Notes under the pieces: generated by a model | The model's input: the letters and a program-made list of their open reading frames with translations, nothing else | Told to the model about the DNA's origin: nothing | Databases searched by the model: none | Shown: in pieces, positions 49,029 through 64,000 of the stretch | How the letters are laid out: each line of letters opens with the position of its first letter | How positions within the stretch are numbered: position 1 is the first letter of the stretch | From: Gemmatimonadota bacterium | GTDB lineage: Bacteria; Gemmatimonadota; Gemmatimonadetes; Palauibacterales; Palauibacteraceae | Length of the DNA: 64,000 nucleotides | Assembly: GCA_039584255.1 (NCBI GenBank) | Contig: JBDGYE010000007.1 | Span: 5,815-69,814 of the forward strand | Direction: 5' to 3' | Made by a program: the position numbers and the translations under genes

Positions 49029-51284
49029 TTAGGGGATCAGAGAGTCGGACGACGTCCCAAACCCGACGCTGTTCAACAAAGCCTCGAACCGCGGATCTCC
49101 GCGAAGGTTGTCCAGGAACGGATCCACGTTCAGGTAAATGAGGTCGCTCACGCCCTCATCACAGGCACGCTTCAGGCAGGAAAACGCCTTGTCTCTTTCT
49201 CCCAGGGACGCGTAGATGAGGGTGAAGGCATAAGGCGTGACGTACCGCTCCTTGGAGAGCTCCTTCAACTCCTCGACAACTTCGAGTACCTCGGCCCTCA
49301 TCCCGGCCAGGCCATACGCCCGTCCAAGCGCAGCCAGCTTCGCCCGATCTCCGGACAACTCCATGGCCTTCCGGGTCGCTTCGATGGCATCGGCGTGCAT
49401 CCCCTTCTGAGCGTAGGCCGAGCCCAGGGTCACATGAGCCCGAGTGAAGCCGGGGTCCATCTCGAGCACTCTCTCGTACTGGGCTATGGCCCGGTCGTAG
49501 TCTCGGGCCAGGTAGGAAAGCACGCCCAGATCCGTCATGGTTCCTAGCGAGACGGGGTCGAGATCGAGGGCCCGCTTGAGAGTAGCGATGGCTTCCTCCG
49601 ACCGCCCTCTCCCGGCAAAGAAGAACGCGTAGAACCGGTAGGCGGACGGGTTGTTGGGATTCAGCCCGATGGCTCGTTTGAACGCCCGTTCCGCCTCCTC
49701 CCAGGCAAACTCGTGCATCTTCAGGTGCCCTAATGAAGCGTGCGCCTCGCTCAACCCATCATCGAGCTCGAGTGCCTTCCGGACGGCCGCCCCTGCGGTG
49801 GAGAAGGCCTCCCTTGGCGAAATGGCAGAGTGCCCGGCATCTCCGAGACTGGCGTATGAATCGGCCAATCCGACGTAGGCGCGGGCGTAGGTCGGGTCCT
49901 CCTCGATCGCTGCCTGGAAGTGCTCGGTTGCCCTCCAGTAGGCCTCCGTGTTGCTCTTGTTCCAGTAGTACCGACCCTTCAAGTACAGGTGGTAGGCGTC
50001 GAGGTCATCCGTGCGCCGCTGGCTGAAAGCGACCCTGTCACCCTCGATCAGCTTGACCTTCAGCACGTCGACGATTGCCCGTGTGATCTCGTCTTGAACG
50101 GCAAAGACGTCGGCCATGTCGCGGTCATACTGTTCAGACCAGATGTGGTACCCGTCTTCGGCGTTGATCAATTCGGCAGTTATGCGTAGCCGATTGCCTG
50201 CCTTCTGCACGGAACCCTCGAGCACCGCGCCGACGTTCAACTCTCGTCCGATGACACGGGCGTCGGCGGGGCGGCCTTTGAAGGAGAAAGCCGAGGTGCG
50301 GGCGGCCACTCGGAAATCCTTGATGTGCGTCAAGGCGTTGATGAGGTCCTCGGAAAGGCCATCGCTGAAGTACTCGTTTTCAGGGTCAAGGCTGAGACTG
50401 GTGAACGGAAGCACAACGATCGACCTCGCTGGCGACGGTCCCTCTCCCCGAACCGGCATCCTCAGCGCGGCCGCAAACTCACTGGCAGCAGCGAACCGGT
50501 CGATATGCGTTTTGGCGAGAGCCTGGCGCACAGTCCGATCCACTGTGTCGGGAATCGACGAGCGCGCCGCCTTCAGCGAAGGAACCGGGTCCATGAGGTG
50601 ACGCGCCAGAATCTCCTGGCGATTCGAGCCCATGAAGGGTGGATGCCCTGCCAACATCTCGTACAACACACACCCGAGGCTATAGATGTCGCTGCGCCCA
50701 TCCAGACTACTGGTGCCGGTCGCCTGCTCGGGGCTCATGTAGGCTGGCGTGCCCACGGCGAGGCCTGTGACGGTGAGCCGGCCTGTGCCCGCCACCCCGA
50801 CCGCCCGCGCCACCCCGAAGTCGGCGATCATAGCGTGGCCGCGCGACAGCAGGATGTTCGCCGGCTTGATGTCCCTGTGCACCACGCCTTGCTCATGGGC
50901 GTAGTCGAGCCCATCGGCTACCTCGACCGCGATGCGCACGGACTCGTCTACTCCGAGCTGTTTCTCACGGCCCAAACACTCCCTGAGGGACTCCCCTTCT
51001 ACATAGGGCATGACGTAATAGAGCAGGCCGTCTGCCTCACCCGAGTCATGGAGCGGTAGGATGTGGGGGTGGTTGAGGCAGGCGACCGTTCGAATCTCCT
51101 TGAGGAAACGGTCAGGGCCCACCGTAGACGCGAGCTCAGGGCTCAGAACCTTGACCGCAACCTGGCGGCTGTGCTTGACGTCTTCGGCCAAGAAGACAGT
51201 TGCCATGCCGCCACGACCGATTTCCTGATCGACGGCGTACCTGTCCGCAAGGGCGGCTTGTAGGCGCTCCAGGAGGTGAGTCAT
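49029..51284 (-). CDS. Ser/Thr protein kinase with central domain and C-terminal TPR repeats
   Basis: IGRGGMATVFLA, VAVKVL, HRDIKPANILL, DFG and SPEQ motifs, then several TPR-like units. GGGAGGAG RBS before the ATG at 51284. Confidence 0.9.
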   Translation of the reverse strand: MTHLLERLQAALADRYAVDQEIGRGGMATVFLAEDVKHSRQVAVKVLSPELASTVGPDRFLKEIRTVACLNHPHILPLHDSGEADGLLYYVMPYVEGESLRECLGREKQLGVDESVRIAVEVADGLDYAHEQGVVHRDIKPANILLSRGHAMIADFGVARAVGVAGTGRLTVTGLAVGTPAYMSPEQATGTSSLDGRSDIYSLGCVLYEMLAGHPPFMGSNRQEILARHLMDPVPSLKAARSSIPDTVDRTVRQALAKTHIDRFAAASEFAAALRMPVRGEGPSPARSIVVLPFTSLSLDPENEYFSDGLSEDLINALTHIKDFRVAARTSAFSFKGRPADARVIGRELNVGAVLEGSVQKAGNRLRITAELINAEDGYHIWSEQYDRDMADVFAVQDEITRAIVDVLKVKLIEGDRVAFSQRRTDDLDAYHLYLKGRYYWNKSNTEAYWRATEHFQAAIEEDPTYARAYVGLADSYASLGDAGHSAISPREAFSTAGAAVRKALELDDGLSEAHASLGHLKMHEFAWEEAERAFKRAIGLNPNNPSAYRFYAFFFAGRGRSEEAIATLKRALDLDPVSLGTMTDLGVLSYLARDYDRAIAQYERVLEMDPGFTRAHVTLGSAYAQKGMHADAIEATRKAMELSGDRAKLAALGRAYGLAGMRAEVLEVVEELKELSKERYVTPYAFTLIYASLGERDKAFSCLKRACDEGVSDLIYLNVDPFLDNLRGDPRFEALLNSVGFGTSSDSLIP

Positions 51285-51406
51285 CGGCTCCTCCCGAGGA
51301 GCGAAGGGGGTGGGGCTGATCAATATAGGACGTCTAGGCTTAGGGCGCTCCTGAGGCGTGCGCCGGTGCGGGAACCTAGCAAGCCCGGGCACGTGTTGGA
51401 CAGCAC

Positions 51407-51874
51407 TCAGCCCGGAATGCGGCCTCGGCGTCGGAGCCACCACCTCAAGCAGCGATGACCGATGTCAACCGGCTCACAGTACATCAAGGGGCATCCGCCG
51501 ACGATGCACTGGATGTTACCCAGCTCGCACTCGCGAATGGCTGCGTCCGAGACACTGCCTGAACCGAACGAACGGTGAAACCACACCCGCTCGACGCCAC
51601 AATCGGCAGACTGGCGCACCAACTCAACCGAAGTATTGGGGTGCGTTGCGACGACCACCCCGTGGATGGACCCAGGGATGGCGTCCAGGCTGGGGTAAGC
51701 CTTGGCTCCCTCGACTTCAGAAGCGTTTGGGTTGACGGGAAACGTCTCGTACCCAGCATCTCGCAGCTTCCGGTAAACGGCGTTGGCGGCCTGGCTAGCG
51801 TTACGCGATACACCCGCGACAGCGATTCGGTTTCCGCTCAGGAACTCGGCGACAGGCTTTGGCAGGTCGTTCAT
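51407..51874 (-). CDS. CoA-binding-domain protein
   Basis: IAVAGVSRNASQAANAVYRKLRDAGYETFPVNP pattern (CoA_binding_2-like). Start at MNDLPK (51874). Confidence 0.7.
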   Translation of the reverse strand: MNDLPKPVAEFLSGNRIAVAGVSRNASQAANAVYRKLRDAGYETFPVNPNASEVEGAKAYPSLDAIPGSIHGVVVATHPNTSVELVRQSADCGVERVWFHRSFGSGSVSDAAIRECELGNIQCIVGGCPLMYCEPVDIGHRCLRWWLRRRGRIPG

Positions 51875-51990
51875 GCGACGCTCCCACGTGTTCTTGCGGC
51901 CAGCCTTGAGGCGTTGGAAGAGGCCCGGCATGTCATGGCTCGACCAAGCGGCGAGGAAGTCCCTTCCAGTTTACCATTCTGAGTAGGCTT

Positions 51991-52039
51991 CCGCCCGCCG
52001 CCGTGCAAGCGAGCGAAGCGCCCGGCGTGAAGCCCGGCG
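51991..52039. repeat. Post-ORF hairpin repeat family copy
   Basis: CCGCCCGCCGCCGTGCAAGCGAGCGAAGCGCCCGGCGTGAAGCCCGGCG. Confidence 0.65.
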
Positions 52040-52080
52040 TTTGATGGACACCTACAGGCAGTCCCCCGGTCGTCGTGGGG

Positions 52081-52311
52081 TCACGTTTTGTGCTCTGGAA
52101 TGCTGTACGCGTTAAGGATTGTCGGCTTTGTGGTGATCGTCCCTTCATTGTACAGCGGCATCAATTCGTCTCTGCGATCTCTCCTCTGGTAGTAGTTCAG
52201 CGCAGCTGCGCCGATTACATAGAGGCTTCCCACGACTACGGCACACCCCCCGCCTATGATTAAGGCAAGCTTACCGAGTATGAGCAATGCTTCTACGGTC
52301 TCTGGATCCAT
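52081..52311 (-). CDS. Small membrane protein (76 aa)
   Basis: One TM (LLILGKLALIIGGGCAVVVGSLYVIGAAAL). Lower-GC stretch. The hairpin repeat lies 40 nt downstream. Confidence 0.35.
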   Translation of the reverse strand: MDPETVEALLILGKLALIIGGGCAVVVGSLYVIGAAALNYYQRRDRRDELMPLYNEGTITTKPTILNAYSIPEHKT

Positions 52312-52377
52312 GTTACGACCCTCTTCCTCTGGCGCCCGGCGTGAACCGGGACGGGGATTCCTCCAAGAGGATGCCGT

Positions 52378-52551
52378 TCAGCGCCACTTCGCGCGGCGAC
52401 GCCAAAGCCAGATAAGTGAGAGGACGCCCAAGACTAGGACCAGCGTGCGCACGGGCAGCCCACCGATGGCTGACGCACTCAGGCCGAAGAACTCGAGCTC
52501 GACAGCCAGCCAGATGAACAGCAACCCCGCAATCAACAGCAGGAACGCCAT
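52378..52551 (-). CDS. Small two-TM membrane protein (57 aa, below the track cutoff)
   Basis: My own translation: MAFLLLIAGLLFIWLAVELEFFGLSASAIGGLPVRTLVLVLGVLSLIWLWRRRAKWR. Confidence 0.3.
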   Translation of the reverse strand: MAFLLLIAGLLFIWLAVELEFFGLSASAIGGLPVRTLVLVLGVLSLIWLWRRRAKWR

Positions 52552-52574
52552 GAGGTTAACAACTTAGCAGCTGA

Positions 52575-52616
52575 ACCCCCCGCCGTGCGAGCGAAAGCGC
52601 CCGACGTGAAACGGGG
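52575..52616. repeat. Post-ORF hairpin repeat family copy
   Basis: CCCCCGCCGTGCGAGCGAAAGCGCCCGACGTGAAACGGGG. Confidence 0.6.
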
Positions 52617-52709
52617 TGCTGGTGAACCGAACTCTTGAGCCGCTTTGCGCCCTCTTAAACCACCGCCCGGTCTACAAACGCTCCATCGCCGGCCTCGAAT
52701 CTGGCCGGG

Positions 52710-52862
52710 CTAATGCATTGCGTGATCGCAGCCAAACAAGAAATGACAGATCGGTATGACGTCGTGGAAGAGGCAGGAGGCCAGGAAGAACAGGATGATA
52801 AGGGCCAGCCCGGCGATTATCAGGCGATGATGTCGTTCCATGGTCGCGGACATGGCTGTCAT
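52710..52862 (-). CDS. Small Cys/His-tailed membrane protein (50 aa, below the track cutoff)
   Basis: My own translation: MTAMSATMERHHRLIIAGLALIILFFLASCLFHDVIPICHFLFGCDHAMH. GAGGTGG RBS 5 nt upstream. Lies 78 nt downstream of the CMD gene. Confidence 0.35.
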   Translation of the reverse strand: MTAMSATMERHHRLIIAGLALIILFFLASCLFHDVIPICHFLFGCDHAMH

Positions 52863-52940
52863 GATTACCACCTCGTCGTAAGAAGAGTGCTTGTTGCATC
52901 AGGCGTCTCGAAAGAATGCGCACGGCATTCGGGCCTAACC

Positions 52941-53342
52941 TCACCCATGCCATGGCTTTTCGTCCGGCTCCACCTGCAGGCCATCCAGGAGCTTGTTGAA
53001 TCCTGCGAACAGGTCGACGACGGACATCAGCTCGACGATACCTTCGTCGTCCAATCCCAACTTCCGCACCGCGGAAGTATGCACCTCAATTCAGTAGCGA
53101 CACCCGGACACGGCCGAAACGGCGACTGCGATGATCTCCCTGGTCAGGCGGTCGAGCTGGCCCGGCGCTGTCATGACCGCCTTCACCTTGTTCCAGTTCG
53201 CCTCGAGAAAACCGGGCCTCGGGGCCATGGCCCGGTACATGTTCGGGACGAAGTCGATTCCCAGAGTGTCTTTGATGTCCTCGTAGATTTCCTTGACCTG
53301 ACCAGTAGCGTCTTCTTCGGCAATCATCTCGATCGAGGCCAT
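52941..53342 (-). CDS. Carboxymuconolactone-decarboxylase/AhpD-like protein with in-frame TGA at the second active-site Cys (candidate selenoprotein, 133 aa if read through)
   Basis: Track ORF 53091..53435 ends ...AVSAVSGCRY-TGA. The same frame continues IEVHTSAVRKLGLDDEGIVELMSVVDLFAGFNKLLDGLQVEPDEKPWHG to the TGA at 52941-52943, reconstituting the family motif C-x-x-[C/U]-x-x-x-H. Start is the ATG at 53342 with a GGAGAGAG upstream. Confidence 0.6.
53060..53078 (-). promoter_or_regulatory. SECIS-like hairpin 12 nt downstream of the in-frame UGA
   Basis: mRNA sense ACUUCCGC-GGU-GCGGAAGU, a perfect 8-bp stem with the GGU apical loop 21-23 nt after the UGA. Confidence 0.5.
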
Positions 53343-53409
53343 CTTCTCTCTCCGGCCAGAACTTGCGGTTTCATCAACCTGGGTTGGTCCCGATCGCGCT
53401 ACGGTGAGG

Positions 53410-54060
53410 TCAACGTGTGCGCGCCGCAGGCGCACGGGCCTGCGCCTCTGCTCGGCTCTTGATGCCGAGAAGGCACTTCCGCATCATGATGAGTTCGAGA
53501 GCATCGACCAACAGCATCTGCACGATGGATGGCCGCGTCCATTTGTAGCGGACTCGCAGACGGCTCACCAAGCGTGTGTGCCCAGTGTCTACCTCGTACA
53601 GGCCCCACGCCCACGTAGCATTCGACCACTGACCCTCCACCCGGAAGACCCACAACATCGACTCTTCCCGGTTCATCTCCAGCACTTCGACATAGGAATC
53701 GGGCGCAACCGGAATCATGTCCCCGATCTTCAGGTCTTGATACTCGGGGATGATGCGCTCCGCGCTCGGGATTCCGCCGTTGTCGAGCCGATCGTAGCTG
53801 TAGAAGCCAGCTCGCTTGTAGCCCATCTGCAGAAGCCAGGGCCAGATGTCCTCCGGACGCGCTGCGACGGTGACTGCCCTTGTACCGTTGAACGACGGGC
53901 GTGCATTGAGCTCGTCCCCGAGCATTGTGCGACTGACCTCCTCGTCCGTTGCGCCCCATGTCAAATGCCAAGGACGGATCACGAGGAGGTACGCGACGAT
54001 CAATACAGCGAAGACAGCAACTGCGCCGAGCAGCAGCGTCTTGAGTTTTCTGCGCTTCAT
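53410..54060 (-). CDS. SRPBCC-superfamily (polyketide-cyclase/START-like) protein with N-terminal TM anchor
   Basis: MKRRKLKTLLLGAVAVFAVLIVAYLL anchor. RPEDIWPWLLQMG...GFYSYD pattern typical of SRPBCC family members. Confidence 0.6.
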   Translation of the reverse strand: MKRRKLKTLLLGAVAVFAVLIVAYLLVIRPWHLTWGATDEEVSRTMLGDELNARPSFNGTRAVTVAARPEDIWPWLLQMGYKRAGFYSYDRLDNGGIPSAERIIPEYQDLKIGDMIPVAPDSYVEVLEMNREESMLWVFRVEGQWSNATWAWGLYEVDTGHTRLVSRLRVRYKWTRPSIVQMLLVDALELIMMRKCLLGIKSRAEAQARAPAARTR

Positions 54061-54118
54061 CGCTGACCTCATTCACGAGGCCAAAGTCAGCAGAGCATGA
54101 CGGCCAATCCGCCGACGG

Positions 54119-54814
54119 TCAGTCGCTGTGCTCGAGGCGCCTCTCGCGGCGGTCGCGTGGCCGCTGGGTCGCGGACGTGGGCTCGATCCCGCTGATCCGG
54201 TTCTGGCGAGCGGAATTGCCGAACGGTTGCGCCACTAGCTCGATCGTCTCTGGGGGCAGGTTGGGCCGGCCGGCCGCGGCGGGACTCTCCGCCCTCGGCA
54301 GCGGGTTGCTCAGGGATTCTCCTTTGATCTTCTCCTGTATCATCATGATTCCGTAGATCAGGTTCTCCGGGCGTGGAGGGCAGCCCGGCACGTACACGTC
54401 CACCGGGATGATGGCGTCTACGCCCTGGACTATAGTGTAGTTGTCGAACATTCCGCCCGAGCTGGCGCAGGCGCCCATCGCGATCGCCCACTTGGGCTGC
54501 GGCATCTGGTCCCAGATGCGTCGTAACACCGGTGCCAGTTTGTAGGTGACTCGCCCACCTACGATCATGAGATCCGCGTGCCGTGGACTGTATTGCAGCC
54601 ACTCCATGCCGAAGCGGCCGATATCGAACCTCGCCGCGGAGGCAGCCATGCACTCGTTCACGCAGCACGCCGTGTAGAAGGGCATGACCCAGAGGGAGTT
54701 GCGGCGGGACCAGTTGACGACGCGGTCCAGCCTGCTAATCAGCCAGGGATAAGAGTCTATACGCCTCAGCGCGGCGTCGGATTCCAACTCGCCCGGGGCA
54801 GGGACGGTAAGCAT
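54119..54814 (-). CDS. Orphan NuoB-family (NADH-quinone oxidoreductase subunit B / hydrogenase small-subunit-like) protein with Arg-rich tail
   Basis: [26 protein letters not shown] and VPGCPPRPE supply all four N2-cluster Cys. No nuoA, nuoC or nuoD neighbours. About 70-aa disordered C-terminal extension. Confidence 0.75.
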
Positions 54815-54817
54815 TCC

Positions 54818-54913
54818 CTAGAACCGCGCGCCCACACTCGCCACGAACTGCTCACCACTCTCGACCTCGATCTTTCCCTCGACGAACGGCTTTGCGATAC
54901 CGTGGCCGAACAT
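54818..54913 (-). CDS. Possible 31-codon micro-ORF immediately upstream of the NuoB-like gene
   Basis: MFGHGIAKPFVEGKIEVESGEQFVASVGARF. GGAGGA lies 8 nt before the ATG. The stop is 3 nt before the nuoB-like ATG. Confidence 0.25.
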   Translation of the reverse strand: MFGHGIAKPFVEGKIEVESGEQFVASVGARF

Positions 54914-55246
54914 CAGCCCTTCCTCCGCTTTACGTCTTCCCTGCGCCTTCGGGACCCGGACCAGTGGCGCCTGCTGAACGTGGTAACTCCAACACCGCGG
55001 CACAAGTTAGGCTGAGCTGCAATCGGGATGGGACAGCGCGCAGAAAGCGCAACTGCTCTCGCCCGACAGTGGCCGCTCACTCCTCCTCTCAAGCCCGCGA
55101 AAACCGGAAACGTACGTAACTCAGGAAAGCCTCGGCTGAAGGCTAGGGTTGTCGGGGGAGCCTCCAGGACAGTATAGAACCGTTGCCCGGGTAGGATGAA
55201 GTGGGCGGGCTTATCTGCCGGAGAGAGCTCCAGCGCGGTTGGGCTT

Positions 55247-55337
55247 GTCACCCCTTTGTCACCGACCGTTCTCAACCTGTTGAGACGACCACGTCCCAGA
55301 TGCACGAAAGCCCCGTCGCAAGAATCTACGGGAGCTT
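55247..55337. repeat. att-flank repeat, copy 1 (GGTGACA doublet + inverted repeat + hairpin)
   Basis: TGTCACCCCTTTGTCACC...TCTCAACCTGTTGAGA...CCCAGATGCACGAAAGCCCC. About 80% identical to 61021-61106. Confidence 0.7.
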
Positions 55338-55581
55338 CCAAGGGGAAGTCGGTCTGCGTGTTCTCGGAGAGGTCCCTCGGGTTGCCCCTGATCGTCCAGC
55401 TGTGCCGCTGGTTAGGTGGGTGTTTGTTCTGCTGGTGCTTCCGACCCTGGGCCAGGCGGACCAGGAAGGGCGGGACGCGGCGCTGCCGATTCACACAGCG
55501 GGAGCTTTGACTGCGGCTCCGGAACAGGTAACCTGGAGGCACCGGATTGCAGCGTGCAACGCACCGGCGCAGCAACGGCCC

Positions 55582-56076
55582 TTACTGCCCCTTACGCCTT
55601 TCCTTCCCAGATCGGCGTTCGCCTCTTCTGCGATCTACTCCTTTCCGCCTATCTGGAATGTCGATAGGTACCTGCTTCTTGCGCCGGTCCGTGCCCGAAC
55701 GGCGATCTCGCCCTCTGCGTCGGTCGCTACCCGACCGGGCTTGTACCTCAACACGCGCGTACGTCGTTTCGAACGCACCAATCCCCTGATAGCCGGGCCT
55801 AAGACCCGAGGCAACCTGATTCGTGATAATCAGGCCCTCCATCCTGGACACTTCAAACAGGTTCCAGCCGGGCGGAGTGGTTGGCGTGGAGTAGCCGCCT
55901 ATCTGGTAAGCAATCAGGAGCTCCTTTCCGGAAGCCGCAGCCCCATACGCATAGGGCTCTACCTGCCGGATTCCACCTTCGTAATGAAATCGAACGATAC
56001 GTCTTTCCTGGATTGCCTTGCAGACGCGTGAACGGAACTCGTCGCGACTCATCGTTGCACTCCCTTCGTACAGCAA
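55582..56076 (-). CDS. WYL-like small beta-barrel protein with C-terminal DRR-repeat Arg-rich tail
   Basis: RIVRFHYEGGIRQVEPYAYGAAASGKELLIAYQIGGYS....GWNLFEVSRMEGL pattern. Tail SDRRRGRDRRSGTDRR...PDRRKGVDRRRGERRSGKERR. Start at 56076 or 56052. Confidence 0.55.
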   Translation of the reverse strand: MLYEGSATMSRDEFRSRVCKAIQERRIVRFHYEGGIRQVEPYAYGAAASGKELLIAYQIGGYSTPTTPPGWNLFEVSRMEGLIITNQVASGLRPGYQGIGAFETTYARVEVQARSGSDRRRGRDRRSGTDRRKKQVPIDIPDRRKGVDRRRGERRSGKERRKGQ

Positions 56077-56221
56077 ACGTATCCGAGCCGGTCGCGCGGG
56101 CCATCTCTCAGGTGTGCTGCAAATGCGTGTGTAGCTTGCACTTCTGCGCCTCAGAAACGGGGAGAGGGTCCCTGCTTCTCTGAGTATGAATCATAACCAC
56201 ATCGATCGCTGAGCCAAATAG

Positions 56222-56422
56222 CTAATCGCGCACGCACGGGCAAAGGTCGCAACGTGATGAGCTCTCTGCGTGTTTACAACGACCAATCCCGCGGGGAGAA
56301 AGAGGGCCCTCGCGGTGTGTCACCATGCCGTTCATCATGGTGAACGGGACCTCCGTCTCGGAGATCTCGTGGGAGTCGACCTCGAAGAGGTTGCGCCCCA
56401 ACACCACGAGGTCGTACGGCAC
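56222..56422 (-). pseudogene. 3'-terminal remnant of an amidohydrolase gene
   Basis: YDLVVLGRNLFEVDSHEISETEVPFTMMNGMVTH parallels the C-terminus of the amidohydrolase at 16772..18409 (DLAVLSQDIFEVPLGELPTTRSILTFVSGEVVH). No upstream catalytic domain. Confidence 0.5.
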
Positions 56423-56493
56423 AGTTCAATCTGTGACGAGAGGCTCTCCGGTCCCAAGTCCCTCACAACTCCGGAGCTGGAGACTCGCAGGTG

Positions 56494-57024
56494 CTACGGT
56501 GCGTTCGTTCTCAGATCCCAGCTTCCGACGACCTCTCCCTGCTTCCTGCCATCGGCGCCGTAGGCAGTGTACGTCCACTCGGCGCGGCCAAAGGCCAGGG
56601 AGAGTGCCTCCATCGGGTGTTGGCTGCCGTGGGCTGCCGAGACCGAGTTAGCGCTCACGAGCACATCTGTGAGCTCAAGGCGGTAGAACTCCCGGCCTTC
56701 TGAGACAACACGGAGAGTCGCCTGCGCGAATCGCTTGCCCGTGGCGCAAGCCTGCAGCAGCACGGGGCTTGCCTTATCGACAGGCTTGAGGATGCTCAGG
56801 TCCGAGAAATCTGCCCTGCCCGCAGTCCTCGCACTGAGATCGGCCGCGTTGGCCGCTCCCCACTCGAAGGATTCGACGACAATGCACCCCCTGCAGTCCC
56901 TTTCCATGGACTCCCCTTCGACGCCCTCGATCTGGAGGAATACCTCAGCCTGCGCCTGGGCCGCATCGGGCAGCGTCAGGAGACCCATCGCGACAGAAAG
57001 CGCCAGTACGAGCATCCTTCTCAT
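56494..57024 (-). CDS. Hcp-family (type VI secretion tube protein-like) protein carrying a Sec signal peptide
   Basis: VFLQIEGVEGES...VESFEWGAAN...FSDLSILKPVDKASPVLLQACATGKRF..ATLRV...LELTDVLVSA...EALSLAFGRAEWTY matches Hcp1 throughout. N-terminus MRRMLVLALSVAMGLLTLPDAAQA. AAGGAGAGG RBS before the ATG at 57024. Confidence 0.8.
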   Translation of the reverse strand: MRRMLVLALSVAMGLLTLPDAAQAQAEVFLQIEGVEGESMERDCRGCIVVESFEWGAANAADLSARTAGRADFSDLSILKPVDKASPVLLQACATGKRFAQATLRVVSEGREFYRLELTDVLVSANSVSAAHGSQHPMEALSLAFGRAEWTYTAYGADGRKQGEVVGSWDLRTNAP

Positions 57025-57533
57025 AGGACCTCTCCTTTCCAAAGAGGCACAGTGCTGCCGGACTGCCGACGCGCGCCTGCTGCTGTGTCCTCCTATCTGG
57101 CCCGTTTCGCGATCACCGGGAGGTAAGCACAGCGTCACGCAGTCGCAGACAGCCCAGCAAGGGGACGGCGAGCCTTCCCAGATTCAGGTGTGAGGGGGAG
57201 CACGACCACCTTGAAGCTACCGACCCGCTCGCCGGCTTGCTAGCAAGCAAAGGCGCCCAGCGTGCAAAGGGGCGGCCCTCGATCGAACCGCCCTTTATCG
57301 GTGTCAACCAGCCTTGGCCACTGCTCTGGAAGCTGATCGGTGAGGGGAGAAATGTGAACATGGGCTTCCATCCACCGCCCGTCGCGTCTTTTGACCGAGG
57401 CGACTACGCCGCCATCCAGGCCCGTAAGCTCTGACTCCATCGCCGCGACCACTTGACTTCGCCGTGACAGACCTCTGCCGGTCAGGAACATGGAGAGTGG
57501 TGCGATTCGAACGCGACGAGACGGCGACGGTCC

Positions 57534-58866
57534 TCAAATACCCGTATGCCGGTGAGTGAACGCCAGGCCGAATCCCTCCAGCTCCGCTAGCACGGGCTCG
57601 TAGATCTCGCGCAAGGTGGGCATCAGGACGCCCGTGGTCTCGATCACTCCCTCGAGGATGAGTCGTGCGGCGATCGCCGCCGGCAGCGAGACGGCACGGG
57701 ACATCGCCGAGTCACCGTGGGGAACTCCCTCCACCACCATGCTGGTCGACCGTGTCTCGCGGCGCGCCGGGCGGTTCTCAGCGCCGGCACCAGGGAACTC
57801 AGCGCTGATCTCGTCGTGCACGATGATCATGTCCCGTTCACCGGGTGCGTAGGACATGCGTCGCAACATGAGGCAACAGGCCGAGCCACTCGAAGCGCTG
57901 TATCACATCGGCGATCTCCTCCACACCGAGGAACTCGGCCGTTTCCTCCCGGACCCGTGCCGTGGATACGCTTCCCTCGCCCTCCCGGGCCGCCTCTACT
58001 CCCCTGGCCCGAGAGATGAGCCCAGCCGTGTAGTCCGCGTAGGTCCGCCCCGTCCACTCGATCGCCTCGGAGTCATCGAGCGCTCCCAGCGAGATGAGGG
58101 CCCGCATCGTGTTGCACCAGCCGGTGAAGCGAAGTAAACCGCGATAGAGGGAGACGCTGTCGTCGAGGTCGTACCACGGCAGGTAGCGGGTGGAGTCACG
58201 GTTCGGATACGTCTCGAACACGCCGATCCCCTCTATTTCGACGATCCAGTGATGCTCGAACAGACGGTCGCCCGGAACCTCTACCCGGCGGCCCTGCCGT
58301 AGGTACGCAGCGGGGGCCTGCGCGGCCAGCATCACCCCCTTCGGGCTCCATGAGAACTTGTAGCCGAGGGGGTTTCGGTTGTGCTCGAAGGCGGGAAGGC
58401 CAGCTCCGTATGAAGTCACGCTTAAGGCGCGACCGCCCTCGTCCCGGATCGCATCGAGGGTCTGCATCACGCCCATGTGGTCGAGACCCGGATCCTCGCC
58501 GATCTCGTTCAGGATCGGTATGCCAGCCGCCTTCGCCTCTTCGTCGAGGGCCGCCATGGCCGGGCTGATGAACGAGGTGGTGATCATCGGTGTGCGGTGC
58601 CGCAGGCACGCCCGGGCCACCGGGATGTGCATCGTCGGTGGGATCATGCTCACGACGAGGTCCGCGCCTTCGGCCAACTCGTCGAGCCGGTCCTCCTCGT
58701 CGGTCGTCCACGCGAGCGTCTCGCCGGCGGCGCGGCCTGCCAGAATGCGCTCCGCCTTCGAGACGGTCCGGGTGGCCATCACGACCCGGTAACCGCAGCG
58801 GTCGAGGAAGTAGTCGACCATCGGCTTGGTGACCATCCCCGCGCCGAGAACGACGACCGTGCTCAT
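57534..58866 (-). pseudogene. Saccharopine dehydrogenase-like gene split by a frameshift
   Basis: ORF A (58866 down to the stop at 57838) carries VVVLGAGMVTKP and NEIGEDPGLDHM. ORF B (57869..57534) carries the family C-terminus SYAPGERDMIIVHDE...SAMSRAVSLPAAIAARLIL. The two overlap by 32 nt in different frames. Confidence 0.65.
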
Positions 58867-58929
58867 GTAGGCTCCTTCGTTGAACGCTGCTCCCTTCGGT
58901 AGCCTACATGAAGCTGCCACGTATAGCCA

Positions 58930-58985
58930 CCGCTTATCAGGCTCGAAACGAGCGCTGGTAGGCGCTGTCACCGCCTTTGTCACCG
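58930..58985. repeat. Second att-flank repeat type, degenerate copy
   Basis: GCTCGAAACGAGCGCTGGTAGGCGCTGTCACCGCCTTTGTCACC, homologous to 61154-61207. Preceded by a decayed trace of the T arm (CCACCG...CTTA). Confidence 0.6.
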
Positions 58986-59222
58986 TGCGGCCAGGCGCTT
59001 CTCTGGTCGAGCCTCCATTGGCACGACACAATGCCGTGCAGGATTGGGCGGGTGACCTACATTGATCGAGCCGGCCTGGGGCACCGCTCCGGCAAGCCAG
59101 TGCCTTAGCAGCTGGACCGGGCAAAGATTACTCATGAGAATCCGCGGAAGGAGTGCGGCAAGCGCGGCGACCGCCGGGCCGAAAGCGGTCGGCAAGTCAA
59201 GGGATTGGCCCTCCGATATCCG

Positions 59223-60503
59223 CTACCTGCTCGACGGTATTGGCAAGTCCATGAGCTTGCGCGCCACTTCAAGCGGGCCATCCCGCGTGGCTTGCCAGCC
59301 CTTCAACTGCGCCATCGCCGTCTTGTACGCCGGATCTCCCAGCACCGTGTCGATCGCGTCCCGCAGGCGCCCGCGCGCCAGGCTGCGCAGCGAGCGGCAC
59401 AGCCCCGCCCCATGCCGCTCGACCAGACGCAGGTTGAAGTTCTGCTCCGGCTGAAGGGGGAAGCCGATCACGGGGACGCCCGCCGCGATGGCGGTCTGCA
59501 CGCTTCCTTGCCCGCCGTGGATGATGGCCAGGTCGCAGCGGGGCATCACGAGATGCGAGGGCAGGAAGTCCCGCACGAGGATGTTGGCTCCGGCGCCCGG
59601 GTCCGCTCGGTGCACGGTGGTCACGATGACGGCCCGGACGTCCAGGCCCTCCAGCGCCTCGCGCACCCGCCGCACGTACTCCGGCCGGCTCGATGCCAGG
59701 GCGACGTAGACCTTGGGTCGATCGGTCTCTAGGAACTCAGCCGCGTCGTCGGGGAACTCGCCGAACAGCTCGGCGAACATCGCACCGGCATAGGCGAGGC
59801 GTGCGTTGGGACGGAACCGGTGCGTGTCCGTGGGACGCCATGCCTCGAGCTCATCCCCGGGGATCCCCAGGATCTCCGGCACGTCGGTGACCAGGGTGAG
59901 ATCCCCCATGAGGAGGTCGAACGTGCTGCGGATCATCTCCCTGATCCCCAGCCGGCGCGCCACGGCGTTGAAGGTTCTGGTCTGGAACCGGGCCCGGGTG
60001 AAGACCCGCCCCGCGACCCAATCCACCCACGGCCCGGGGAGAAGGGCCGTGACGGGATTGTCGAATGCCTCGCGAGACGCAAACCCCGCGGCCTCCAGCG
60101 CCGGAGGCACGAACGACCCCAGGTGCGTCACCACCAACGGGATGCGGGCGCCCCGCGCCGACAGCGCTGCCGACAGCGTGAACCCGATGACCACGGCCCG
60201 TGCACCGTGCCGCTCGAAGAACGCCATCTCCGACCGCACATGCGCCTGGAGCGCGGCCGGCTCGTAGAGCGGCTGCCACGGTCGGTACGTCAGCACCTCC
60301 AGCTGGCGCCGGGCCTCGTCGGCGGTGAGCCGCGGCTCGATCAGCTCGTAGGGCACGCCCTCCTGCCGCAGCACGAACTCGTAGGGCCCGCCGTGGGTAG
60401 CCAGCACCGAGTCCGCGCCCAGCTCCCGCAGCTTTCGGTACACGGCCACCATGCGGGAGGTCTCTGAGAGGAAAGCGCAGTTGGGCAGGCAGACGACGGT
60501 CAT
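59223..60503 (-). CDS. GT1-family (MGT/UDP-glycosyltransferase-like) glycosyltransferase
   Basis: C-terminal donor-binding pattern LAIIHGGQGSVQTAIAAGVPVIGFPLQPEQNFN. 426 aa. Confidence 0.8.
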   Translation of the reverse strand: MTVVCLPNCAFLSETSRMVAVYRKLRELGADSVLATHGGPYEFVLRQEGVPYELIEPRLTADEARRQLEVLTYRPWQPLYEPAALQAHVRSEMAFFERHGARAVVIGFTLSAALSARGARIPLVVTHLGSFVPPALEAAGFASREAFDNPVTALLPGPWVDWVAGRVFTRARFQTRTFNAVARRLGIREMIRSTFDLLMGDLTLVTDVPEILGIPGDELEAWRPTDTHRFRPNARLAYAGAMFAELFGEFPDDAAEFLETDRPKVYVALASSRPEYVRRVREALEGLDVRAVIVTTVHRADPGAGANILVRDFLPSHLVMPRCDLAIIHGGQGSVQTAIAAGVPVIGFPLQPEQNFNLRLVERHGAGLCRSLRSLARGRLRDAIDTVLGDPAYKTAMAQLKGWQATRDGPLEVARKLMDLPIPSSR

Positions 60504-60640
60504 GGGCTACGGTACACCTCCCCACCCTTCATCACGAACACCACGTGGCGGAGTGCCGAGGTGTGCTCCAGGGGATTGCCATCGACTGCGATTATGTCCG
60601 CCAGCAGACCAGCGCAGTTCACCTCGGTCAGGCCACCGGG
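60500..60640 (-). pseudogene. 3'-terminal remnant of an amidohydrolase gene, stop overlapping the GT start (ATGA)
   Basis: ...LLADIIAVDGNPLEHTSALRHVVFVMKGGEVYRSP is a typical amidohydrolase C-terminus. The upstream sequence in frame is not protein-like. Confidence 0.5.
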
Positions 60641-60940
60641 ATCGCCGTCAGGGACAGCGTTCTGACGAGTGCGGCTCACTACGTCGAGGATGCGCCCCAC
60701 CTCCCCGTTCTCCTCGATATCTTCGAACACTACACCGGTCAGCCCGATCCCCAACCGGTCTCGCTCGGGGGCGGAACCCATGCGCGGCTCGTTCCGAACG
60801 GTGTCAACTTCGGCCCGTCGATGCCCGGAGACGTTTACACCGGCCACAGTGAGCACGAGTTCATGACGCGCGAGACGTTCCTCCTCACGCTGGAGATGTA
60901 TACCGCCATGCTCGTGGAACTGGCCACATCGAAACGCTGA
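60640..60940 (+). pseudogene. 3'-terminal remnant of an M20 dipeptidase (PepV/Sapep-like) gene
   Basis: ...LLDIFEHYTGQPDPQPVSLGGGTHARLVPNGVNFGPSMPGDVYTGHSEHEFMTRETFLLTLEMYTAMLVELA matches only the C-terminal roughly 90 aa of that family. Confidence 0.5.
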
Positions 60941-61020
60941 GATTCGAGGTGTTTGGGCCAGGCCTGCCGGACTCTCGAAGTCCGCGGGCGCGGTGGGAGC
61001 AGACCAAGGGTGCTCCCTCT

Positions 61021-61106
61021 TGTCACCGCCTTTGTCACCGGCCTGCCTCAATCTGTTGAGACTGCCCACCCCCAGATGCACGAAAGCCCCATCGTGACGG
61101 GGCTTT
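61021..61106. repeat. att-flank repeat, copy 2 (adjacent to the tRNA-Lys half)
   Basis: TGTCACCGCCTTTGTCACCGGCCTGCCTCAATCTGTTGAGACTGCCCACCCCCAGATGCACGAAAGCCCC... Confidence 0.7.
61083..61106 (-). terminator. Hairpin plus U tract directly after the tRNA-like remnant
   Basis: Minus strand AAAGCCCC-GTCACGAT-GGGGCTTTCG. Confidence 0.45.
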
Positions 61107-61111
61107 GCGCG

Positions 61112-61153
61112 GAGGCCCGGGCGGATTTGAACCACCGACCTCACGCTTAAGAG
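61112..61153 (-). other. tRNA-Lys(CUU)-like 3' half (anticodon loop to discriminator); probable integrase att-core remnant
   Basis: Minus strand CTCTTAA|GCGTG|AGGTC|GGTGG|TTCAAAT|CCGCC|CGGGCCT|C reads as anticodon loop, 3' anticodon stem, variable loop, T arm and 3' acceptor. No complementary 5' acceptor strand, D arm or 5' anticodon stem upstream. Confidence 0.6.
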
Positions 61154-61207
61154 CTCGAAACGAGCGCTGGTTGAGCGCTGATATGCTCTGTCACCGCCTC
61201 TGTCACC
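61154..61207. repeat. Second att-flank repeat type, copy adjacent to the tRNA-Lys half
   Basis: GCTCGAAACGAGCGCTGGTTGAGCGCTGATATGCTCTGTCACCGCCTCTGTCACC. Confidence 0.6.
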
Positions 61208-61308
61208 CCGCCCTCCGCCGGGCGAGCAAAGCGAAAGCGCCCGGCGTGCCGTCGAGGCACGCAGTGTCGAGACATCGAGCACGCGCTGCGTGCGAACAAC
61301 GGGGCGCC
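61208..61308. repeat. Post-ORF hairpin repeat family, long (about 100 nt) copy
   Basis: GCCGGGCG-AGCAAAGCGAAAG-CGCCCGGC, followed by GTGCC-GTCGA-GGCAC and GCACGC-GCT-GCGTGC hairpins. About 95% identical to 61998-62098. Confidence 0.75.
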
Positions 61309-61331
61309 TGCGTCCCAGTGGCATCTGAGTC

Positions 61332-61880
61332 TCAGTGCCACATGGCGTTGATGGTCAGCAGCAGCAAGCTGGCGCTGTTATCGCTGATTCCCTGATAGAC
61401 GAAGTCGACGGTAGGCGTCAGAAAGAAATTGCTGGCGACCTGAATATCGTAGCCCAAGGCGGCCCCGAACCCAAACCCGCCATCCGGCTCCACGTCGCCC
61501 GGGACAAACTGTAGATCAGCCGTGCTGCCTGCGAATCCTATTCCCCCTTTTAGGAACAGTCCCCCTCGCGGGCTGGGGTAGTACATGACTATCAGGTGAG
61601 CGTTTCCTCTGGCGAGGTCAGTACCTACCTCGGTCGTCGTCCAGCCAATGGCTTCCCCACCGACAAGGACCTGCTGGCTCGGAGTACCACCCATACGGAG
61701 CTGCGACGCGAATCCCGTTTGCGTGTCTCCGAATACATCGTCATCTAGACTCCAGCCGCCACCGAACCCAAAGCTGATCCAGAATCCTTCGTGGTTCGCG
61801 GTCCTCTGGCCCAGCGCGGAGGACGGTAGCAGCAAGGCGAAGGAAAGGGCGAGGACAAGGCCAGTCATTCGACGCAGCAT
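61332..61880 (-). CDS. Small outer-membrane beta-barrel protein (OmpW/OprG-like porin-family size, 182 aa)
   Basis: Signal peptide MLRRMTGLVLALSFALLLPSSALG. Alternating-strand patterns. Aromatic C-terminus ...LLLLTINAMWH. GGGAGGTG RBS before the ATG at 61880. Confidence 0.7.
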   Translation of the reverse strand: MLRRMTGLVLALSFALLLPSSALGQRTANHEGFWISFGFGGGWSLDDDVFGDTQTGFASQLRMGGTPSQQVLVGGEAIGWTTTEVGTDLARGNAHLIVMYYPSPRGGLFLKGGIGFAGSTADLQFVPGDVEPDGGFGFGAALGYDIQVASNFFLTPTVDFVYQGISDNSASLLLLTINAMWH

Positions 61881-61997
61881 GATGCACCTCCCAATCTGCG
61901 TAACAGGCCGTGCCAGGAGGGGGATCGGCAAAGACTGCTTGGCCGTGGTTCGACCTGGCAAATACGCATGCGGGGCTAGGTGCTGTGAGTCTACGAT

Positions 61998-62098
61998 CCC
62001 GCCCGCCGCCCCGCGAGCAAGCGAAAGCGCCCGGCGTGCCGTCGAGGCACGCAGCGTCGAGACATTGAGCACGCGCTGCGTGCGAACAACCGGGCGCC
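61998..62098. repeat. Post-ORF hairpin repeat family, long copy
   Basis: Direct repeat of 61208-61308, 790 bp away. The two copies bracket the OMP gene. Confidence 0.75.
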
Positions 62099-62130
62099 GG
62101 AACGTGCGATAGAGCCTGCAGATGGCGCTC

Positions 62131-62517
62131 TCACTCGAGGTCTGCGCCGCGGTCGGCCAGGAGTTCACGGAGCAGGGACCTGTGACATCGAGACTCTCCC
62201 GCGCAGTAGCAGCCCACGGAGAAGTGGGCACCGTGCGATAGGACCGCAAGGAGATCAAGAAGCCGACTCTTGTCCGGAACGGCCATCTCGGCTCGGTACT
62301 TCTTCGCGAAGACGCCCCAGTCCTCGTCGCTGCTCACCGCTTGACCCAGCTTCATGAGCTCCGGGCTCGGTGCCAAGTTGGGGAGCCAGACGTCGTAGTA
62401 GTCTCGCGACGCGTACTCCGTCTTCGGGACACCGCGGGGCGGACGTCTCACGGTGCCAACTCGCACTCCCTCTTCACGATTCCTCGGAGTCCCCAGGCGC
62501 ACTATTCGGATTGTCAT
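62131..62517 (-). CDS. DUF488-family protein
   Basis: IRIVRLGTPR...VWLPNLAPS..L...........W..F...Y..E......LLDLL......FSVGCYCAGESRCHRSLL pattern. Start is the ATG at 62517. Confidence 0.7.
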   Translation of the reverse strand: MTIRIVRLGTPRNREEGVRVGTVRRPPRGVPKTEYASRDYYDVWLPNLAPSPELMKLGQAVSSDEDWGVFAKKYRAEMAVPDKSRLLDLLAVLSHGAHFSVGCYCAGESRCHRSLLRELLADRGADLE

Positions 62518-62612
62518 CTGTGCTTGGATCCTGTCTTTGTCTAGCCACATGCTGGCGGGGCGCGATCGCAACGCCGACCGCGATCCACAATGGCCTCTCC
62601 AGCCGCTTCATG

Positions 62613-63005
62613 CTAGGTCGCGGCAGATGGCTCCGAACCCTTTGGCGCCAGAATCAGCAGCACGATCCCGACAATCGCCAGGGCCGGCACATCACCGAAT
62701 AGGTGTCCCCGCTCGGCGGTATCGCGGAGCGCTTGTACACCCATGATTCCGGCATGCACGAGGCTGGACCAGGCCGTGAACAAGATCAGGCTCCGGTGCT
62801 TGTGAGGCTCGCGCGCGGCCAGTATGAGGAAGACGCCCAACGTAGCGTACACACCAATGAACATCTGCTCATACTCGGGCTGATTCGGCTGCCACTGCCA
62901 CCCCGCCGGCCAGATGCGCATGAACAGCCACACTCCGAAGATGAAGACCAGCCCGACAGCGATGAGCACCGGGCGCAGTGCCTGCGAGTGTTGTCCTCCA
63001 TTCAT
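62613..63005 (-). CDS. Hypothetical four-TM membrane protein (130 aa)
   Basis: Four hydrophobic segments. No family confidently recognised. Confidence 0.5.
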   Translation of the reverse strand: MNGGQHSQALRPVLIAVGLVFIFGVWLFMRIWPAGWQWQPNQPEYEQMFIGVYATLGVFLILAAREPHKHRSLILFTAWSSLVHAGIMGVQALRDTAERGHLFGDVPALAIVGIVLLILAPKGSEPSAAT

Positions 63006-63193
63006 TAGTGATCCCCCAGATGGCTCTTTGCCTCACCACCACTCAACGCGTCTATGCTGCACAGGAGGGCACGCTCCACGTGGAGGCCCCAGCCTGGCAG
63101 CTCGGAATGCAGTGTCCGAGAGAATGAACCTCAGGGAGAATCCGCTTCGTCTGCAATCACTATACGCGCTCTCCTACGAATGCCGGTTACGGC

Positions 63194-63236
63194 TCCCCGC
63201 CGCCGGCGAGCAAGCAAGAGCGCCCGGCGTGACTCA
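63194..63236. repeat. Post-ORF hairpin repeat family copy
   Basis: CCCCGCCGCCGGCGAGCAAGCAAGAGCGCCCGGCGTGAC, abutting the stop of the ICMT-like gene. Confidence 0.6.
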
Positions 63237-63794
63237 GAACAGGAAAGGAATGAACATCTTCGTGCGCCGCATGTACGCGCGGTAGTCGGGGCCGAAATAC
63301 CGGAGATTCTCAGTCTCCTCGACCCTGGCCGTCGCCACCAGGAAGGCCGTCGCGCCCAGCGCCAGGCAAATCCCGGCCCAGGATGGATTCTTAAAGAACA
63401 CACCCCATCCGAGAAGGAGCAGCGAGCTGTAGAGGGGATGTCTGATGTACCTGAAGGCACCCGTCGTCACCAGCCGGGTTGTCTTCTCGATCCCGAGCAG
63501 GTGTCCTTCCGCACGTCCATCCGCCTCCGGTTTGCCCTGAGTGCGCAGCAGATGTACCCCAGGAACCGCCGGGACCAGCGAGGCCACAAGCAAGAACCAC
63601 GAGACGAGCTGACGAAGGGAGAACGGGTCGTGGAACCACTGCTCGAAGTTCTCGAAGTTGAGCAGGAAGAGGACGAGGATGCATTCCCACGCGAAGAACC
63701 GGTAGAAGCCATGAGAACGCGCGTCCTTCAGGGAGGCCCTGGAGACGTACGCGAATCCGGCGGACAGGGCGATGAAGACTACGAGTCTGGGCAT
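63234..63794 (-). CDS. Isoprenylcysteine carboxyl methyltransferase (ICMT/PEMT-like) family membrane protein
   Basis: LVTTGAFRYIRHPLYSSLLLLGWG...EETENLRYFGPDYRAYMRRTKMFIPF is the C-terminal family signature. Confidence 0.75.
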   Translation of the reverse strand: MPRLVVFIALSAGFAYVSRASLKDARSHGFYRFFAWECILVLFLLNFENFEQWFHDPFSLRQLVSWFLLVASLVPAVPGVHLLRTQGKPEADGRAEGHLLGIEKTTRLVTTGAFRYIRHPLYSSLLLLGWGVFFKNPSWAGICLALGATAFLVATARVEETENLRYFGPDYRAYMRRTKMFIPFLF

Positions 63795-63840
63795 GGTCTC
63801 ACTCCGACGCCGTCGTGAGACAGAGCCTCCCTCCTAGCTT

Positions 63841-63890
63841 CCCGCCCGCCGCCGTGCGAGCAAGCGAAAGCGCCCGGCGTGAACCAGGCG
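63841..63890. repeat. Post-ORF hairpin repeat family copy
   Basis: CCCGCCCGCCGCCGTGCGAGCAAGCGAAAGCGCCCGGCGTGAACCAGGCG. Confidence 0.65.
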
Positions 63891-64000
63891 CTGGGTCGCT
63901 TAGGTGTAACCCGCCCCGTTTAGCATCGCAGTGCACTCAGATCCTCTGAGAGCGACAGGAGATCGTGGCAGTTTACCCTTTCCACAACCGCATACCACTC

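Follow-up and report, generated by a model that had tools for sequence, protein, structure and literature searches.

Can the tube protein of a type VI secretion system (T6SS) work outside the cytoplasm and without its machine? Hcp is assembled in the cytoplasm inside the sheath and has no signal peptide, and it is precisely because the signal peptide is absent that Hcp is used for T6SS annotation and as the standard read-out of T6SS activity. The question is raised by a 64,000-nucleotide stretch of a draft Gemmatimonadota genome (contig JBDGYE010000007.1, positions 5,815 to 69,814), called the window below, whose minus strand carries a gene for an Hcp preceded by a Sec-type leader. A preliminary description of the window had taken this gene for an orphan Hcp homologue, repurposed as a ring or chaperone-like protein of the periplasm or the cell exterior. 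Here we show that the gene encodes an Hcp fold behind a hydrophobic leader, and that such leaders go with T6SS-free loci among its relatives. On balance we think it rather probable that the gene is functional and that its product is an exported, T6SS-independent Hcp, likely a ring and most likely the scaffold or carrier of a small partner.

Results

The gene and the elements that define it are as follows.

56494 to 57024, minus strand: coding sequence of the leader-bearing Hcp, 176 amino acids (aa) plus stop (open reading frame (ORF) and translation, Pfam, AlphaFold2, Foldseek)
56569 to 56940, minus strand: Hcp domain, residues 29-152 (full Pfam T6SS_HCP profile)
56884 to 56895, minus strand: CxxC motif, C44-R-G-C47, in place of the family's conserved H-x-G-W (alignment)
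56947 to 57024, minus strand: Sec-type signal peptide, residues 1-26 (sequence features), with a predicted signal peptidase I (SPase I) cut after A24 (AQA↓Q) or A26 (AQA↓E)
57029 to 57036, minus strand: Shine-Dalgarno sequence AGGAGAGG, 4 nt ahead of the ATG (sequence reading), kept in metagenome contig L093

The reading frame runs from an ATG at 57024 to a stop codon at 56494-56496. Its product matched Pfam PF05638 (T6SS_HCP) with 100 bits (cut-off 23.5; E 1.6e-28) over profile positions 1-129 of 129, and every peptide segment that the preliminary description had quoted for a match to Hcp1-family proteins along the whole mature part is present. Against NCBIfam TIGR03344 (TssD) the protein scored 53.5 bits, under the curated cut-off of 58.9. 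Among PDB sequences, phmmer matched Pseudomonas aeruginosa Hcp1 (1Y12) at E 1.7e-17. The AlphaFold2 model, built from a 30-sequence alignment, reached a mean pLDDT of 90 and a pTM of 0.82 and has the Hcp beta-barrel with its one helix; in Foldseek its best PDB match was again 1Y12 (E 2e-16, TM 0.80/0.88, root-mean-square deviation 2.2 Å), and ranks 1-50 among the matches listed were all Hcp or Hcp-fusion structures. Taken together, the Pfam, phmmer, AlphaFold2 and Foldseek results indicate that the protein, as modelled, has a true Hcp1-type fold. It ends only 6 residues past that fold and has no C-terminal sorting signal. Across 114 Hcp rows, a CxxC at the H-x-G-W site was found only in the window's protein, in its relative P0002 and in the unrelated leader-bearing P0128 (CPKC), and a C44-C47 disulfide is a plausible candidate in the window's protein.

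The 28 residues ahead of the Hcp domain, MRRMLVLALSVAMGLLTLPDAAQAQAEV, are laid out as MRR, a 15-residue hydrophobic core, MLVLALSVAMGLLTL, and PDAAQA↓QA, with PDAAQAQAEV as the approach to the domain. The core reaches a maximum Kyte-Doolittle mean of 2.54 over 11 residues, the two AxA sites overlap and a lipobox cysteine is absent. The leader agrees with the rule set for Sec export and SPase I cleavage, that is, a basic n-region, an h-region of 10-15 residues, AxA at -3/-1 and no lipobox. When 25 leader-bearing homologues were aligned with 4 leaderless ones, the AxA site came to lie 1-2 residues ahead of the initiator methionine position of the leaderless Hcps, and cleavage would therefore leave a normal Hcp N-terminus.

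The start codon assignment bears directly on the leader. Directly 5' of the ATG lies GGAAAGGAGAGGTCCT, a strong ribosome-binding site. The other in-frame starts upstream, a GTG and a TTG, would do no more than extend the protein at its N-terminal end; the internal starts M4 and M13 fall within the leader, and the next, M40, would remove the conserved first strand FLQIEGVEGES. An independent metagenome contig, L093, encodes P0002, a 93% identical protein, and in a pairwise DNA alignment ribosome-binding site and ATG coincide between the two genes. The signal peptide of the preliminary description, with its n, h and c regions, its Shine-Dalgarno sequence and its ATG, is borne out as judged by sequence rules: we found no better-supported downstream start that would remove the leader, and leader, ribosome-binding site and start codon are all kept in the metagenomic copy.

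Does the genome hold a T6SS that could use this Hcp? The assembly is a draft of 3.11 Mb in 140 contigs and 89% complete. Within the 64-kb window, tblastn with 14 T6SS proteins of a relative's cluster found no T6SS gene, in agreement with the preliminary description, and the same search was positive in 20 control loci. In the draft as a whole, the window's gene is the single match to PF05638, the family profile of TssF found no match, and TssM, L, K, B, C, A, E, F and G of G055 gave no tblastn match. G055 is a related single-contig genome with a full T6SS cluster, which served as the source of queries. Its TssM, L, K, B, C, A, E, F, G, ClpV and VgrG were assigned by gene size, order and N-terminal sequence, the assignments of TssC, TssF and Hcp being additionally backed by family matches; the cluster also holds a homologue of a 526-aa protein described below, a leaderless Hcp and a TagJ-like gene. 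When all proteins of this cluster were searched against the draft, the only matches were two genes on contig C123, the window's Hcp (30% identity) and a generic Clp ATPase.

Contig C123 (5176 bp, locus L002) carries the genome's one PF05943 (VipB) match, an ORF of ~526 aa that joins a VipA-like N-terminal part to a VipB domain and lacks the C-terminal sheath domain. Adjoining it are the first 336 residues of a VgrG, which runs off the contig. In T6SS-positive relatives the homologue of the 526-aa protein is encoded by an extra gene between tssK and tssB, alongside normal TssB and TssC, and we know of no name for this VipA+VipB-like protein. In G055 its gene precedes tssB-tssC-hcp; on C123 the next gene is an unrelated PEP-CTERM-like one. 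The contig could be a remnant, could have been binned wrongly, or could lie at the margin of a cluster that was not assembled. As assembled, the genome is without a working T6SS. The preliminary reading would fail if the genome held a T6SS that uses the window's Hcp; that it holds none is supported by the absence of TssF and of a canonical TssC and by the negative core tblastn, with the C123 genes and the completeness of 89% as its caveat.

We surveyed 61 genomes of the same order, of which 23 had an Hcp match and 6 a VipB match. Five relatives carry both TssC and TssF (G011, G033, G046, G053 and G055), and in 5/5 of them hcp directly follows tssC and encodes a leaderless product that starts MAFDAFL, MPYDAFL or MAWDAYL. 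The fragmentary G058 has TssF, no VipB match and an hcp cut by the contig end. At 19 further loci with a readable start, the product begins with a leader of 36 to ~80 residues, basic and then hydrophobic, with a GGAGG-type site upstream. Seventeen of these come from sixteen genomes without TssC and without TssF, including the single-contig G042 and the same-genus G001, and in those sixteen genomes only leader-bearing Hcps are present; the other 2 are second, separate loci in G053 and G055, which also carry the leaderless hcp. No T6SS genes were found in the fetched flanks (up to ~8 kb per side) of 18 leader-bearing loci. For an external sample, 35 loci were found with one narrow pattern from a 6-sequence alignment and are a biased sample. 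Six leader-bearing loci from named genomes (two Opitutia, Rivibacter, two Thermoanaerobaculia and Dongiaceae) had no T6SS neighbours, with TssC absent from 5 of the 6 genomes, and T6SS neighbours were present at 20 of 28 leaderless loci. Pooled over both samples, T6SS genes adjoin 0/25 leader-bearing loci versus 25/33 leaderless loci (Fisher p = 1.5e-9, the loci not being phylogenetically independent). Across these loci the association of leaders with T6SS-free surroundings is strict.

A tree of 114 Hcp domains places the window's protein, together with the order's other leader-bearing Hcps, in a group of 37 rows, 34 of them leader-bearing, and the Hcps of the order's T6SS clusters elsewhere. 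Gain and loss of the leader on this tree imply 11 changes, only 1 of which is forced by well-supported branches. The preliminary description had proposed a phylogeny and a survey of neighbours for signal-peptide-bearing homologues; both have now been made, and they set these proteins apart from the order's cluster Hcps and find no T6SS genes in their flanks. The same-genus G001 carries a different leader-bearing Hcp at another site; its product is almost the same as P0084, a protein that shares 39% identity with the one from the window.

In a sister family the leader-bearing hcp lies in conserved synteny among housekeeping genes, just downstream of a 120-aa cupin gene. The other members, like the cupin named from reading their sequences, are an EamA transporter, a PlsC-like gene and a tricorn-like protease, and the conserved synteny argues for long vertical inheritance there. 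L077, L079, L080, L082, L083, L085, L086 and L089 each have a 120-aa cupin-like gene that precedes the leader-bearing hcp in the same orientation; the gap is 19-36 bp in L083, L085, L086 and L089, and a 500-aa gene lies between the two in L079 and L080. Cupin and leader-bearing hcp possibly form a conserved two-gene unit.

These results bear on the simplest alternative, that the window's Hcp is the ordinary tube protein of a T6SS missing from the draft, its leader being an annotation artefact or irrelevant. Such a hidden system would account for the VgrG fragment and the VipA+VipB-like gene on C123, and it would fit both the incompleteness of the genome and the fact that the window's Hcp is its only Hcp match. 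We nevertheless regard it as very improbable. There is no alternative start codon, tssB and tssC do not come after the C123 gene as they do in relatives, and in each of the five T6SS-positive relatives the hcp in use is the one beside tssC, whose leaderless product belongs elsewhere in the tree. Moreover, a hydrophobic leader would divert Hcp away from cytoplasmic tube assembly.

If the gene serves no T6SS, is it maintained at all? Compared with the P0002 gene, the ratio of non-synonymous to synonymous substitution rates (dN/dS, Nei-Gojobori) comes to 0.15 in the mature part, 0.25 over the whole gene and 1.47 in the leader, the last value being based on very few sites. The leader holds 5 of the 12 amino-acid changes between the two proteins, and all 5 preserve its character. 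The mature part of the window's Hcp is under purifying selection. The elements around the gene are listed here.

56412 to 57244, minus strand: cassette of ~0.83 kb shared with metagenome contig L093 (pairwise DNA alignment)
57534 to 59124, minus strand: saccharopine dehydrogenase gene broken into two overlapping ORFs (Pfam domain split over the two)
55253 to 55318, plus strand: left copy of a 66-nt repeat, its partner 5776 bp away
61029 to 61094, plus strand: right copy of the 66-nt repeat, 82% identical to the left (sequence comparison)
54119 to 54814, minus strand: stand-alone nuoB-like gene (Oxidored_q6), an extra copy without adjoining nuo genes (sequence comparison)

The cassette consists of ~200 bp upstream, the gene and ~85 bp downstream, at an identity of roughly 90-95% as estimated by eye. 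Homology between the window and L093 breaks off on both flanks, where the surrounding context is different; since it is limited to ~0.83 kb, the gene appears to travel as a small cassette. The same-genus G001 has an intact saccharopine dehydrogenase, ~50 nt longer over the broken stretch, and its DNA homology to the window region is confined to this gene. The split copy is either a pseudogene or an assembly error. The 66-nt repeats bracket 5.8 kb around the Hcp gene and contain an internal CTCAAC...GTTGAG hairpin. Because further copies occur on other contigs of the window's own genome and of a same-genus sister genome, the repeat looks like a dispersed element similar to repetitive extragenic palindromes (REP) or miniature inverted-repeat transposable elements (MITE), not a unique pair of attachment sites. 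At the DNA level, the nuoB-like gene shares 87% identity with a copy on contig C132 and 75% with another on C17. The island remnant in which the preliminary description had placed the gene is corroborated by the broken dehydrogenase, the extra nuoB copy, the dispersed repeats and the different context of the cassette in the 93% relative.

Other signals in this region were few. ARAGORN found no tRNA genes in 50000-64000, Rfam gave no match in 55000-58000, and a promoter and terminator scan around the gene returned one weak promoter-like site downstream and no terminators. PADLOC gave no match, and in PHROGs only an unannotated family matched. The ORF at 55582-56076 on the minus strand encodes 164 aa without a Pfam match; by eye it has a WYL-like N-terminal part and a tail of arginine-rich DRRxG/ERR repeats. 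A candidate amidohydrolase C-terminal stub at 56222-56422 was unsupported by Pfam and by BLAST against neighbours and genome, and was dropped.

Broken and duplicated neighbours, together with a fall of the GC content to 0.57-0.60 right beside the Hcp gene, could suggest that the gene is itself a decaying, non-functional remnant in a degraded island. This is hard to reconcile with an intact frame, a strong ribosome-binding site and the low dN/dS of the mature part, and we give it very little credence.

The same setting invites a defensive alternative, in which a periplasmic ring would act as a decoy that captures Hcp-dependent effectors injected by the T6SS of neighbours, a broad immunity sponge in T6SS-free bacteria. 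In its favour, leader-bearing Hcps are concentrated in T6SS-negative genomes, the Hcp1-like fold is kept, and the window's gene, mobile as a small cassette, has variable and island-like surroundings. The sister-family gene, however, is stably inherited among housekeeping genes and not in defence islands, the PADLOC search was negative, and G053 and G055 hold both a T6SS and a leader-bearing Hcp. A decoy function is in our view distinctly improbable.

How widespread are leader-bearing Hcps? An exhaustive phmmer search of 1.84 billion representatives gave 8,161 matches to the window's protein. Among the matches listed of at most 260 aa with the start-of-domain motif, 58 of 66 have a hydrophobic leader, 7 start at the fold and 1 is fragment-like; some of the longer leaders may be membrane anchors rather than cleaved signals. 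Leader-bearing Hcps were found in Gemmatimonadota, Verrucomicrobiota, Acidobacteriota, Pseudomonadota and Planctomycetota. Their mature domains hold a mean of 0.84 cysteines (34/80 with none) against means of 1.7-2.4 in leaderless Hcps (Mann-Whitney p = 9e-7), a depletion that may point to an oxidising environment. The cultured betaproteobacterium Rivibacter subsaxonicus DSM 19570, in which TssC is absent, encodes at L048:10001-10720 a leader, an Hcp domain and a PEP-CTERM signal that scored 21.7 with Pfam (cut-off 20.7) and 16.9 with TIGR02595 (cut-off 16). This predicted PEP-CTERM is separate evidence that the protein resides outside the cytoplasm.

The homologues with the best scores are 900-2,100 aa long. 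With a hidden Markov model (HMM) of the mature domain, the best 151 homologues divide into 76 with one Hcp domain, 14 with two, 4 each with three, four and five, 46 with six and 1 with seven; the tandem repeats have a median period of 168.5 aa and linkers of ~25 aa. Because of this strong preference for six copies, with two and three cited as the next commonest, the hexameric ring is arguably what selection maintains in the six-domain branch. The model of one six-domain protein, P0008, has a pLDDT of 81 and a pTM of 0.79, which suggests a fixed mutual arrangement of the six domains, and we infer that the chain closes into a ring. No T6SS genes adjoin the gene of the six-domain P0006 (locus L099). 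Many proteins of this type (P0003-P0025 and others) begin with a ...RRxL..E.LE.R.LLA motif, which we regard as characteristic of the large proteins that Planctomycetes secrete. Others begin at the fold itself and have C-terminal tails of 450-1,200 aa; these are possibly single-chain Hcp rings that carry a payload.

Two further contexts were seen in this survey. The metagenomic locus around P0086, L095, has a leader-bearing hcp, next to it a gene for a second Hcp-domain protein of 298 aa and after that a MoxR/DUF58/BatA/BatD/VWA aerotolerance-type operon. L051, a 1.04-Mb contig of an uncultured Actinomycetes metagenome-assembled genome, has a leaderless Hcp1-type gene with T6SS genes absent within 10 kb, an Hcp unexpected for that phylum if the label is right.

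The Rivibacter homologue with its exosortase anchor, the C-terminal modules or long linkers of some homologues, and the six-domain single chains with Planctomycete-type N-terminal motifs would all suit an extracellular or surface building block, in which exported rings stack into tubes or fibres or attach to the surface or matrix in a structural or adhesive role. For the window's protein we consider this unlikely. It ends just past the fold with no C-terminal sorting signal, its extended loop is shorter and without the Gly-rich stretch, and no dedicated outer-membrane secretion partner lies nearby.

Discussion

The reading that we favour, an exported Hcp that acts apart from any T6SS, would proceed as follows. 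The Hcp would be made with a cleavable Sec-type signal peptide and carried across the inner membrane, and signal peptidase I would cut at AQA↓QA, freeing a mature protein of ~150 aa with a normal Hcp N-terminus. The mature Hcp would then fold as a beta-barrel outside the cytoplasm, in the periplasm of the diderm Gemmatimonadota cell or beyond, and would most likely form the usual six-membered ring, working independently of any type VI secretion machine. Its role would be that of a ring scaffold, either soluble or associated with the surface, on which a small partner protein is held or carried. Retention of the ring is likely by analogy with the six-domain relatives, since 46 of 151 homologues have exactly six domains and P0008 was modelled with a pTM of 0.79. 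Cytoplasmic Hcp1 holds and chaperones effectors in the ring lumen, and analogy with this chaperone function makes carriage of a partner the most likely role.

Several points weigh against this reading. Export and cleavage are predicted by applying signal-peptide rules to the leader. The n-region contains twin arginines (MRRM/RRML; RRTF in P0002) and could also direct twin-arginine translocation (Tat). A Tat signal has an S/T-R-R-x-F-L-K motif, a long n-region and a weakly hydrophobic h-region, whereas this leader is short with a strongly hydrophobic core, and lysine-type n-regions prevail among its relatives. The draft is 89% complete and includes a VgrG fragment and a VipA+VipB-like gene, so that a T6SS cluster could be unassembled or unbinned. 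Both the Fisher test and the cysteine test ignore phylogenetic non-independence. One or several origins of the leader are possible because the deep branches of the tree lack support. A search of 18 related loci and 3 metagenome contexts turned up no functional partner gene that is conserved. Finally, the neighbours of the gene are housekeeping genes in the sister family and change from genus to genus in the window's own family.

Beyond the window, we put forward more tentatively, and with somewhat less than even confidence, that leader-bearing Hcps are a widespread and undescribed extracytoplasmic family, a tube ring freed from the contractile machine to serve as carrier, chaperone or sponge, and that Planctomycete-type lineages fused six copies of it into a single-chain ring. 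If so, Hcp matches alone would be unreliable as T6SS markers in metagenomes, and the ring of the phage-tail and T6SS tube would have evolved a life of its own outside the cytoplasm, raising the question of what a ring with a 40-angstrom pore does in the envelope. The six-domain relatives would represent a natural, genetically encoded Hcp ring, and Rivibacter subsaxonicus DSM 19570 offers a cultured organism for testing function.

Comparison with characterised Hcp proteins

The closest characterised counterpart is Hcp1/TssD of the P. aeruginosa H1-T6SS (PA0085, 1Y12), which has the same fold, ~31% identity and an equal mature length. The predicted mature N-terminus of the window's Hcp falls where Hcp1 begins, and the DKASP...ACA.GK helix is common to both. 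Unlike Hcp1, the window's Hcp has a Sec-type leader that looks cleavable, a CxxC at the HxGW position, a TIGR03344 score under the cut-off and a shorter extended loop that lacks the Gly-rich stretch; sheath, baseplate and membrane complex were not found in its 89%-complete draft genome. Set beside a functional TssD, the protein departs in its TIGR03344 score, in an N-terminus that is not leaderless, in a genome without the T6SS genes as assembled and in its distance from any T6SS cluster.

The cluster-encoded Hcps of the same order (L004, L008, L010, L011 and L012) belong to the same Pfam family, but they are leaderless (MAFDAFL.../MPYDAFL...), encoded directly after tssC and apart in the tree, the G055 copy being ~30% identical. 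The orphan hcp and Hcp-ET genes of Enterobacterales (Pantoea, Erwinia and Mixta; L045-L055) likewise lie away from the main T6SS cluster. As a rule, such orphans are loaded by a T6SS whose genes lie elsewhere; they are leaderless, whereas the window's Hcp has a leader and no machine in its assembled genome.

The leader-bearing homologues (P0036, 47% identity; P0086; Rivibacter) share with the window's protein a Sec-type leader ending in AxA and the Hcp domain. None lies near T6SS genes, and most come from TssC-negative genomes. Among them the window's Hcp stands out as compact, without tail or linker and with the rare CxxC. A full-text literature search, which covered largely journals outside subscription, returned no description of a signal-peptide-bearing Hcp or of a six-domain Hcp. 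What we describe is a known fold of a known family, in a cellular location that would be new and with an independence from its machine that has apparently not been described before.

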